Shown: piece by piece, positions 6,567 to 7,343 of the stretch
Position numbering within the stretch: position 1 is the first letter of the stretch
How the letters are laid out: every line of letters starts with the position of its first letter
Assembly: GCA_043809065.1 (NCBI GenBank)
Contig: JAZDEE010000102.1
Location: 1-27,288 of the forward strand
Length of the DNA stretch: 27,288 bases
Source of the DNA: Candidatus Omnitrophota bacterium
Lineage (GTDB): Bacteria > Omnitrophota > Gorgyraeia > JAFGHF01 > JAZDEE01
Direction of reading: 5' to 3'
Made by a program: the position numbers and the translations under genes
The notes under the pieces: model-generated
The model's input: the letters and a program-made list of their open reading frames with translations, nothing else
Told to the model about the DNA's origin: nothing
Database searches by the model: none

Positions 6567-7343
6567 TTATTGGGAACGCTGCATTTTACGAAGAATATCG
6601 GGAGAAACTTCCTTAATAACAGTCTCCTTCGTGCAGGCAGGACCTCTTACCTCAATCCCTGATCCTTTTTCAATAATCTCTCCTATCCTGTATCCAAGAA
6701 AGCATGGATGATCAATGACCAGATTCCGCTGCTCATTCGCCTTCCATTCCGAGCTTAATTTCGCCTTGATCACTTTCTCAATTTCTCCCCCCGGCATAAC
6801 TTCGATCTTATCGTCTTTCTCATTAAACAATTCATATTCCAGCATGCTGACCTGCAGCAAGGCTAAAACCACAAACTTATGTGATAACTGCAATGCCGGC
6901 CGTTGGTTCTTGATTGCCGAAAGAAGCTCACTCGTAAGCCGGTCCTCGGAGATTATATACTGGTATGCCCCGCCTAATTTCAACCTAAACTTCTTCACAT
7001 GGAGGGCGCTAAGTTCACCATGAACGTATCCGATAATATCAGGCGTTACCCCCAGTGAGAATTGCCGTTCGCCTGAAATCGAAGGCAGTTGAACACCGCC
7101 TTTAAGTGAATTCATCAGTTTCTCGTTCTGTTCCGGAGCAAAGACATCCCTTATAAGTACAACCGGGTTGGACCTTAAGTCTGCTGTCTTATAGACATCA
7201 CCGACATTCTGGATTTCCGGGATAGGGATGATCGGAGCGAATCGGTTTTCTTGCAATAAGCGAGTGAGGGGATCCGTCGCGCATCCGGACACAAACACCA
7301 CGAAAACCAGTAAAAAGATATTCTTCCAGGACAAAATCCTCAT
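6567..7343 (-). CDS. Lipoprotein with predicted bacterial-gasdermin-like fold
   Basis: AAGGAG 6 nt before ATG 7343; hydrophobic signal ending in lipobox VSG-C. The mature chain CATDPLTRLLQENRFAPIIP...VGDVY...KFVVLALLQVSMLEYEL...AKLSSEW...FLGYRIGEI follows the segment order of bacterial gasdermins as I recall them. The lipoprotein call is firmer than the fold call. Confidence 0.62.
   Translation of the reverse strand: MRILSWKNIFLLVFVVFVSGCATDPLTRLLQENRFAPIIPIPEIQNVGDVYKTADLRSNPVVLIRDVFAPEQNEKLMNSLKGGVQLPSISGERQFSLGVTPDIIGYVHGELSALHVKKFRLKLGGAYQYIISEDRLTSELLSAIKNQRPALQLSHKFVVLALLQVSMLEYELFNEKDDKIEVMPGGEIEKVIKAKLSSEWKANEQRNLVIDHPCFLGYRIGEIIEKGSGIEVRGPACTKETVIKEVSPDILRKMQRSQ

Follow-up and report, generated by a model that had tools for sequence, protein, structure and literature searches.

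Can a bacterial gasdermin (bGSDM) be built as an exported lipoprotein? The question is raised by a gene of a Candidatus Omnitrophota bacterium, located on the minus strand of contig JAZDEE010000102.1 (GenBank assembly GCA_043809065.1), all 27,288 nt of which were analysed and are referred to hereafter as the window. A first reading of this DNA, the original prediction, had described the product as an orphan gasdermin-like protein carrying a lipoprotein signal peptide. We conclude that the gene encodes a genuine, highly divergent bacterial gasdermin, and that the protein is probably exported, anchored by lipid and able to form pores from outside the cytoplasm. The positions of the gene and of the other features are collected in Table 1.

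A divergent bacterial gasdermin

Homologues of the protein were collected by searching 1.84 billion representative proteins exhaustively with phmmer, which delivered a family of 59 clusters, 19 of them below an E value of 1e-30. When a profile of this family was compared with all PDB sequences, its top three matches were the bGSDM entries 7n51, 8sl0 and 7n52 (E ~1e-3), at co-linear positions. The family alignment was also compared by hhalign with an alignment of canonical bGSDMs (37 proteins, gathered starting from one in a same-phylum genome). This gave an E value of 2.1e-5 and a score of 43.4, with 201 co-linear columns running from end to end and Cys placed on Cys, while 32 null alignments, reversed or column-shuffled, scored at most 20.3. 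The PADLOC bGSDM model (PDLC02986) matched 25 of 47 family members, mostly weakly, with a best E value of 5.2e-11; lipobox-bearing members were matched at E values of 1.6e-5 to 4e-4. Within the family alignment G217 and Y170 are invariant, and the lipoprotein keeps the alternation of hydrophobic and polar residues in its two proto-finger regions. Two other leads were discarded: a phmmer search of the PDB with the lipoprotein returned aldehyde dehydrogenase matches only, which were judged spurious, and Pfam did not confirm the UniRef label 'DUF4292' that one relative (P0068) carries.

The fold was assessed with an AlphaFold2 model of the mature chain, which had a mean predicted local distance difference test score (pLDDT) of 93.2 and a predicted template modelling (TM) score of 0.89. 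In a Foldseek search of the PDB, the six top-ranking matches of the model were all bGSDMs, namely 7n50, 7n51 and four chains of 7n52. They extended over 228–271 columns with E values of 4.3e-8 to 4.6e-3 and TM-scores of 0.44–0.52, at a probability of 1.00 in five cases and 0.99 in one; the best of them was 7n50 (E 4.3e-8, TM 0.52). The eukaryotic gasdermins GSDMB, RCD-1 and that of Trichoplax came next in the list. The original prediction had named CsgG/HfaB and MACPF as competing folds, and neither CsgG nor HfaB nor any MACPF/CDC structure was found among the significant Foldseek matches of the model, so that the gasdermin match stands. It had also proposed that the segments line up with published bGSDMs over the full length; the 201 hhalign columns, the full-length Foldseek matches and the PADLOC matches of the relatives bear this out.

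Export signal and lipobox

The open reading frame is intact, with 258 codons on the minus strand (coding positions 6570–7343, stop codon 6567–6569). A GTG at 7346, one codon upstream of the ATG, is an alternative start. The n-region MRILSWK carries two positive charges and is followed by a hydrophobic core of 11 residues and the lipobox V-S-G-C21. The hydropathy maximum of the N-terminus is 1.99, and LPAM_1 matched it weakly (E 0.3). The signal peptide was called from the charge of the n-region, the hydrophobic core, the lipobox pattern and the hydropathy, as read off the sequence. The reading frame and its translation agree with the description first given, of a VSG-C lipobox and a mature chain of 238 residues, which begins C-A-T-D-P-L-T-R-L-L-Q-E-N-R-F.

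These features are common to the family. The lipobox Cys is conserved in at least 90% of the alignment. With few exceptions, members whose N-terminus is complete start with a positively charged n-region and a hydrophobic core, followed by a box of the form [LVI..]-x-[GAS]-C. In nearly all of the complete members D-P-L-T stands within 1–6 residues after the Cys. Conservation of the lipobox in homologues had been set as a check on the original prediction, and the family upholds it.

An ordinary cytosolic bGSDM might be encoded instead, if its start were mis-called, translation began at an internal codon just before the Cys and no signal peptide were made. Three GTG codons (V14, V15 and V17) do lie just upstream of Cys21, and canonical bGSDMs begin 2–6 residues ahead of their Cys. 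We regard this as highly improbable: a strong Shine-Dalgarno sequence precedes the ATG at 7343 and none precedes the GTG codons within the signal peptide, while relatives down to ~22% identity keep a charged n-region, a hydrophobic core and the lipobox in frame. Moreover, the signal peptide has drifted in sequence relative to the core (55% against 90% identity with the closest orthologue), the pattern expected of a signal peptide that is translated.

The genome encodes machinery for lipoprotein maturation, with genes for Lgt (PF01790, E 1.3e-29) and LspA (PF01252, E 2.7e-37) adjacent to each other on contig C142. A bamA gene was also found, and an outer membrane therefore exists. Aspartate at position +2 after the lipobox Cys is the classic inner-membrane retention signal of Escherichia coli. 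The residue is Ala here, and mostly A, S or T, not Asp, across the family. From the fold and the export signal together, we consider it very probable that the product is a gasdermin-fold lipoprotein.

Cys21 aligns with the palmitoylated Cys of bacterial gasdermins

Alignments by HMMER and hhalign placed Cys21 on Cys4 of the Vitiosangium protein (7n51), Cys3 of the Runella protein (7n52) and Cys7 of the canonical clade, with D-P-L-T-x-x-L-K-x-x-G-Y as the aligned stretch that follows. The local alignments are weak individually and mutually consistent, and they agree with the original prediction in equating the lipobox Cys with the palmitoylated Cys of bGSDMs. The pattern C-x(0-3)-[DE]-P-[LIVF]-x(2-3)-[LIVMF] occurred in 47 of 68 family members and 44 of 70 canonical bGSDMs, and in 3 of 1231 decoy open reading frames of this genome. 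In the AlphaFold2 model a helix occupies mature residues 5–12.

The two groups differ in what precedes the Cys. In the family a full signal peptide stands ahead of it and its median position is 20; in canonical bGSDMs the median is 7 (for example M-S-F-L-G-L-C). The 70 canonical proteins sampled had no signal peptide, save for a few with unclear N-termini, and 2–6 residues stood ahead of the Cys.

In bGSDMs the N-terminal Cys is self-palmitoylated, and a hydrophobic groove, over which the C-terminal peptide forms a cap, accommodates the acyl chain (bioRxiv 10.1101/2021.06.07.447441; PMC10153256). In the pore, the palmitoyl group carried by the alpha1 'thumb' enters the membrane, and a C4A mutation inactivates the protein (PMC10153256). 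Since the canonical protein anchors itself at the same residue, a permanent diacylglyceryl anchor on Cys21 would be mechanistically coherent.

The most conserved motif of the family, P213-x-F-L-G217-Y, lies towards the other end of the core and aligns with L211-V-F213-G214-F215 of Vitiosangium, by residue count on the HMMER alignment. Mutation of L211 and F213 to alanine partially impairs the function of the Vitiosangium protein (PMC10153256). A disulfide latch between core and tail was considered and dropped: most members have Arg in place of Cys214 (6701–6703), and even the 82% identical orthologue lacks Cys237 (6632–6634).

Linker and C-terminal tail

Beyond the core, the model falls to its lowest confidence in residues 227–239 and rises again to a pLDDT of 93–97 in the tail, residues 240–258. 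These values suggest that the tail docks onto the core, and the linker is a candidate site of protease cleavage. The modelled arrangement resembles that of bGSDMs, in which an inhibitory peptide follows a linker. Between members of the family, the stretch after the equivalent of G217 ranges from 10 to 191 residues in length, and an end motif resembling E-[LIV]-P-x-x-E-L-R-K is present in about 18 of 47 members. Five members (P0050, P0023, P0026, P0016 and P0034) end 10–26 residues past the last core motif and have no segment resembling an inhibitory tail.

Relatives in operon and defence settings

The members of the family are all unnamed proteins from metagenomes or metagenome-assembled genomes (MAGs). 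The sources that carry a label are Omnitrophica, an 'Elusimicrobia' MAG (of the same class as the window genome), Verrucomicrobiae and Pseudodesulfovibrio. Of 401 sampled genomes in the phylum of the window, four carry the family; in the phylum to which Pseudodesulfovibrio belongs, it is one of 401. No further gasdermin gene was detected in this genome, the plasmid and phage collections held no match to the lipoprotein, and one metagenome scan for related loci found nothing.

The closest orthologue, 82% identical, sits in a four-gene module (Table 1). The DUF900 hydrolase of this operon has an N-terminal anchor. Its TPR-CHAT protein has 1149 residues, an intact His965/Cys1012 dyad and a single hydrophobic segment, which is N-terminal and stands after eight Lys/Arg residues. 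From these sequence features the bulk of the protein is predicted to lie outside the cytoplasm; given such an N-terminal signal or anchor, the putative protease would share the compartment of the lipoprotein. The Metallophos-NACHT-HEAT protein has no hydrophobic segment. The module is a candidate for a gasdermin system that works outside the cytoplasm and has a STAND sensor within it.

A relative of 50% identity lies in a defence island, with Dcm/EcoRII/Vsr, Abi_C and an AAA ATPase upstream and a PhD/PIN pair downstream. At one further family locus a small four-helix membrane protein is encoded upstream and an IS200-type transposase lies near, and two family contexts were unremarkable. The original prediction called the gene an orphan. 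That holds in this genome, where the copy is solitary, and does not hold for the 82% orthologue, with its TPR-CHAT and NACHT operon. A predation weapon and an outer-membrane channel had been put forward as roles; the contexts lean towards conflict or defence over a predation weapon or a housekeeping channel, and the data do not separate these roles.

Some members show associations of their own. In loci of the P0004 type (L002:7455-7979, L027:9443-9967 and L026:1552-2076) a conserved protein of 174 residues with about four hydrophobic helices is encoded about 20 nt upstream, and it may be a membrane partner in this lineage. Distant members, of the Pseudodesulfovibrio type (~22% identity), lie directly downstream of umuD/umuC-like genes on two independent contigs (L016:8177-10933 and L024:1275-4105). 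In the same-phylum genome G358, two genes (L017:314-1396 and 1486-2325) encode a canonical cytosolic bGSDM, with the N-terminus M-S-F-L-G-L-C-D-G-D-P-L-V, and, ahead of it, a 360-residue protein with an HExxH motif (V-T-H-E-T-Y-H), which may be a metallopeptidase partner in place of a caspase-like one. In the genome of the window, an 80% identical DUF900 orthologue is found at a contig edge (C54:1-717), followed by a GIY-YIG-like gene and purQ/purL. DUF900 was dropped as an obligatory partner, since this copy lies on another contig beside unrelated genes.

The solitary state of most copies bears on an offensive role, in which the lipoprotein would be sorted to the outer membrane or the surface, or shed in vesicles, and would perforate the membranes of other cells, be they hosts, prey or competitors of the small Omnitrophota cells. 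Six of the seven contexts are solitary, as is mostly the case for pyroptolysins, gasdermin–CDC chimeric toxins of 325–400 residues with a sterol-sensing domain (bioRxiv 10.64898/2026.10.05.756811). The lipoprotein resembles these toxins also in its gasdermin fold and in its proposed action outside the cytoplasm of the producer. The existence of an outer membrane, attested by BamA, and the preference for A, S or T over Asp at position +2 fit the same idea. We nevertheless judge it unlikely. The neighbours of the closest orthologue (CHAT and NACHT genes) and the defence island of another relative are signatures of self-directed immunity. No secretion-system or surface-export gene was found near the lipoprotein gene in Pfam scans of the window, and LolA was not detected. 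At 258 residues the single-domain protein has no targeting domain such as the module of pyroptolysins that resembles CDC domain 4. Identity with the pyroptolysins themselves, which are not described as lipoproteins, was ruled out on its length and its want of a CDC-like domain.

Acquisition and selection of the gene

In the window the lipoprotein gene lies between def and a DUF6515 gene, which is followed by purH. The segment 5434–7403 is taken as an insertion because three genomes of the same order keep yggS, IMPase, def and purH next to one another in this order, and def and purH are there at most about 180 bp apart. GC content drops to 0.29 at 6200–6599, and the spacer between the two inserted genes (6252–6566, 315 bp) has 29% GC. 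The DUF6515 gene was not seen beside other family members in the neighbourhoods examined.

DNA similarity to the closest orthologue is 84% over 816 bp and ends within about 12 nt of the gene ends. That orthologue belongs to a genome of another order, whose Def is 48% identical as against 82% for the lipoprotein. Between the two lipoprotein genes the synonymous divergence (dS) is 0.41 and the ratio of nonsynonymous to synonymous divergence (dN/dS) is 0.22. Identity is 90% in the core, 55% in the signal peptide and 59% in the tail. The contrast between lipoprotein and Def, the limits of the similarity and the low dN/dS thus indicate a recent horizontal transfer and purifying selection, with a signal peptide whose sequence drifts but whose character is retained.

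Other features of the locus are less telling. A 13-nt direct repeat, 11 of 13 positions identical, occurs at 6567–6579 and 7404–7416, 837 nt apart; it spans the last codons and stop of the lipoprotein gene and of def, and exactly brackets the gene unit. It could be a microhomology of insertion, or chance. The hairpin ahead of the gene has a fold energy of -22.3 kcal/mol with a z-score of only -1.9, and may act as a terminator or attenuator of def read-through. The genes of the neighbourhood are all on the minus strand, with antisense reading frames unsupported, and no Rfam family was found in the window.

Table 1. Positions of the lipoprotein gene, its parts and associated features. Positions are those of the window unless a locus is named.
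Feature	Position	Strand	Evidence or remarks
Gasdermin-fold lipoprotein gene, 258 residues	6567..7343	-	List of open reading frames, translation, homologues, AlphaFold2 model, dN/dS
Gasdermin-fold core, residues 21-226, with two proto-finger regions and P-x-F-L-G217-Y	6666..7283	-	Foldseek; hhalign
Signal peptide, residues 1-20	7284..7343	-	n-region MRILSWK, core NIFLLVFVVFV, lipobox -3 to -1 V-S-G
Cys21, lipobox +1 Cys, predicted diacylglyceryl attachment site and mature N-terminus	7281..7283	-	At least 90% conserved; aligns with the palmitoylated bGSDM Cys
Post-Cys motif A-T-D-P-L-T-R-L-L-Q-E-N-R-F, including predicted helix alpha1 ('thumb')	7239..7280	-	Common to canonical bGSDMs
Variable linker, residues 227-239, G-S-G-I-E-V-R-G-P-A-C-T-K, candidate protease-cleavage loop	6627..6665	-	Lowest model pLDDT, 73-83
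C-terminal tail, residues 240-258, candidate autoinhibitory peptide	6570..6626	-	Strand E-T-V-I-K-E and helix P-D-I-L-R-K-M-Q-R-S
Shine-Dalgarno sequence GGAAGGAG	7350..7357	-	Strong, 6 nt ahead of the ATG at 7343; sequence
GC-rich hairpin, 8-bp stem	7370..7391	-	Between the def stop codon and the lipoprotein gene; sequence
DUF6515 exported-protein gene	5667..6251	-	Pfam PF20125, E 1.8e-10; signal peptide, hydrophobic N-terminus
Inserted segment of ~2 kb between purH and def	5434..7403	.	Lipoprotein gene, 315-bp AT-rich spacer and DUF6515 gene
Locus of the 82% identical orthologue, four-gene module	L006:5227-14348 (GCA_026387405.1, contig JAPLLV010000013.1)		DUF900, lipoprotein, TPR-CHAT, Metallophos-NACHT-HEAT

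The place of the gene among housekeeping genes, with no trigger gene beside it, would suit a non-lytic envelope protein, in which the fold had been re-used for a lipid-binding, scaffolding or small regulated channel lipoprotein that needs no trigger and causes no death. The persistence of tail-less members, hard to square with an unrestrained lethal pore, points in the same direction, and lipid binding is native to the fold, as the hydrophobic groove of bGSDMs binds an acyl chain. Such a role is nonetheless quite improbable in our view. The spread of the family is very patchy and the transfer recent, unlike an envelope part of housekeeping function, and relatives occur in operon and defence-island contexts. 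Conservation of the motif that aligns with functional Vitiosangium residues, together with the alternating polarity kept in the proto-finger segments, likewise weighs against a non-lytic role.

Proposed mechanism

We propose that the gene arrived by horizontal transfer inside the ~2-kb insertion between def and purH, and that its product would be exported by the Sec and signal peptidase II (SPase-II) route, Lgt adding diacylglycerol to Cys21 and LspA cutting ahead of it. The mature protein would then hang on the periplasmic side, either from the inner membrane, by its periplasmic leaflet, or from the outer membrane, by its inner leaflet, with its core of about 205 residues kept closed by the C-terminal strand-helix tail through the variable linker. 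An extracytoplasmic protease would cut the linker and release the core, which would oligomerise, refold its two proto-finger regions into beta-hairpins and perforate the membrane that tethers the lipoprotein. In the close orthologue this protease may be a dedicated one, the exported or anchored TPR-CHAT protein; for solitary copies another envelope protease, or a protease of the invader, could serve. The outcome would be permeabilisation of the envelope and suicide of the cell, in the style of abortive infection.

We infer lipidation, membrane location, cleavage, pore formation and biological role in this scheme. As a whole we hold it to be the best explanation and a rather likely one, and a pore-former triggered by a protease is about as probable. 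A self-directed role in defence or suicide, by permeabilisation of the envelope in a conflict setting, is put more tentatively, with somewhat less than even confidence.

Several findings weigh against this interpretation, some of them touching the identity of the protein. The lipoprotein itself had no Pfam, NCBIfam or PADLOC (PDLC02986) match at E values up to 10, no family member matched the Pfam bGSDM family PF26164, and cross searches of hidden Markov models against sequences with one narrow canonical clade remained at the level of noise and decoys. Its TM-scores of 0.44–0.52 are also lower than those between canonical clades. A control model of a canonical bGSDM reached 0.74–0.79 against its own clade (7n51) and 0.55–0.63 against 7n50 and 7n52. 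Because the lipoprotein falls below this cross-clade yardstick, its model places it in a branch more distant than the known bGSDM clades are from each other, in the same fold family.

Other findings concern the trigger and the membrane. Pfam scans of the whole 27-kb window found no protease gene, in keeping with the earlier statement that none is nearby, and the genome, which is 68% complete, yielded no protease of the CHAT or C14 type. A protease is adjacent in only one of seven distinct neighbourhoods, that of the 82% orthologue, and the N-terminal segment of its TPR-CHAT protein was assessed by hydropathy and charge only. The near-tail-less members must mean that control by cleavage is not universal in the family; they are controlled differently or are not lethal. 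LolA, finally, had no match in the 68%-complete genome, and either membrane is a candidate destination.

Comparison with known gasdermins

The lipoprotein has the fold and about the length of the cytosolic bGSDMs of Bradyrhizobium (7N50), Vitiosangium (7N51/8SL0) and Runella (7N52). It shares with them a Cys close to the N-terminus, with D-P-[LIV] and helix alpha1 after it, and a short C-terminal tail after the core. As in bGSDM operons, the close orthologue has genes for a caspase-like protease of the CHAT type and for a NACHT protein next to it. It differs from them in having a full Sec/SPase-II signal peptide and lipobox in place of 2–6 residues before the Cys. Its lipid would be an enzymatic diacylglyceryl group (possibly with an N-acyl chain) on the periplasmic side, as opposed to a self-added S-palmitoyl group in the cytosol. 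It also stands outside the Pfam and NCBIfam models, has lower TM-scores and mostly lacks an adjacent protease. The protein is thus an exported lipoprotein branch of the bGSDMs and not an ordinary member, because it falls outside the curated models, is not placed in the cytoplasm and has no adjacent protease in this genome.

In eukaryotic gasdermins, GSDMD (Cys191) among others, a lipidated Cys helps the pore-forming domain to insert into the membrane (PMC10153256). They differ from the lipoprotein in that this Cys is in the fingertip and not at the N-terminus, that lipidation is cytosolic and enzyme-dependent, and that autoinhibition is by a large C-terminal domain.

A full-text search, with subscription-only papers outside its reach, found no relevant literature on a gasdermin that has a lipobox or a lipoprotein signal peptide, resides in the periplasm or comes from Omnitrophota, and so no paper at odds with the original prediction, which knew of no characterized example. 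The founding bGSDM preprint makes no mention of signal peptides, lipoproteins or periplasm (bioRxiv 10.1101/2021.06.07.447441).

The widest form of the hypothesis joins two ideas: a periplasmic gasdermin pathway, with cleavage by an exported TPR-CHAT protease, possibly a cytoplasmic NACHT sensor, and perforation from the outside in; and descent of the palmitoyl-Cys and the lipobox Cys from one ancestral site, with a signal peptide gained or lost. That both should hold together is rather unlikely, though the consequences would be broad.

The family also exposes a gap in annotation. Pfam and NCBIfam miss it and PADLOC finds about half of the relatives, so that surveys based on such models undercount gasdermins. 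If the proposed reading of the lipoprotein is true, gasdermins, known as cytosolic executioners that act from the inside out, would also work from the periplasmic side. The lipobox Cys would offer a concrete hypothesis for the origin of the self-palmitoylated N-terminal Cys, and, through the exported TPR-CHAT protein of the orthologue, the many unexplained caspase-like proteases that bacteria place outside the cytoplasm would be tied to a defined substrate.

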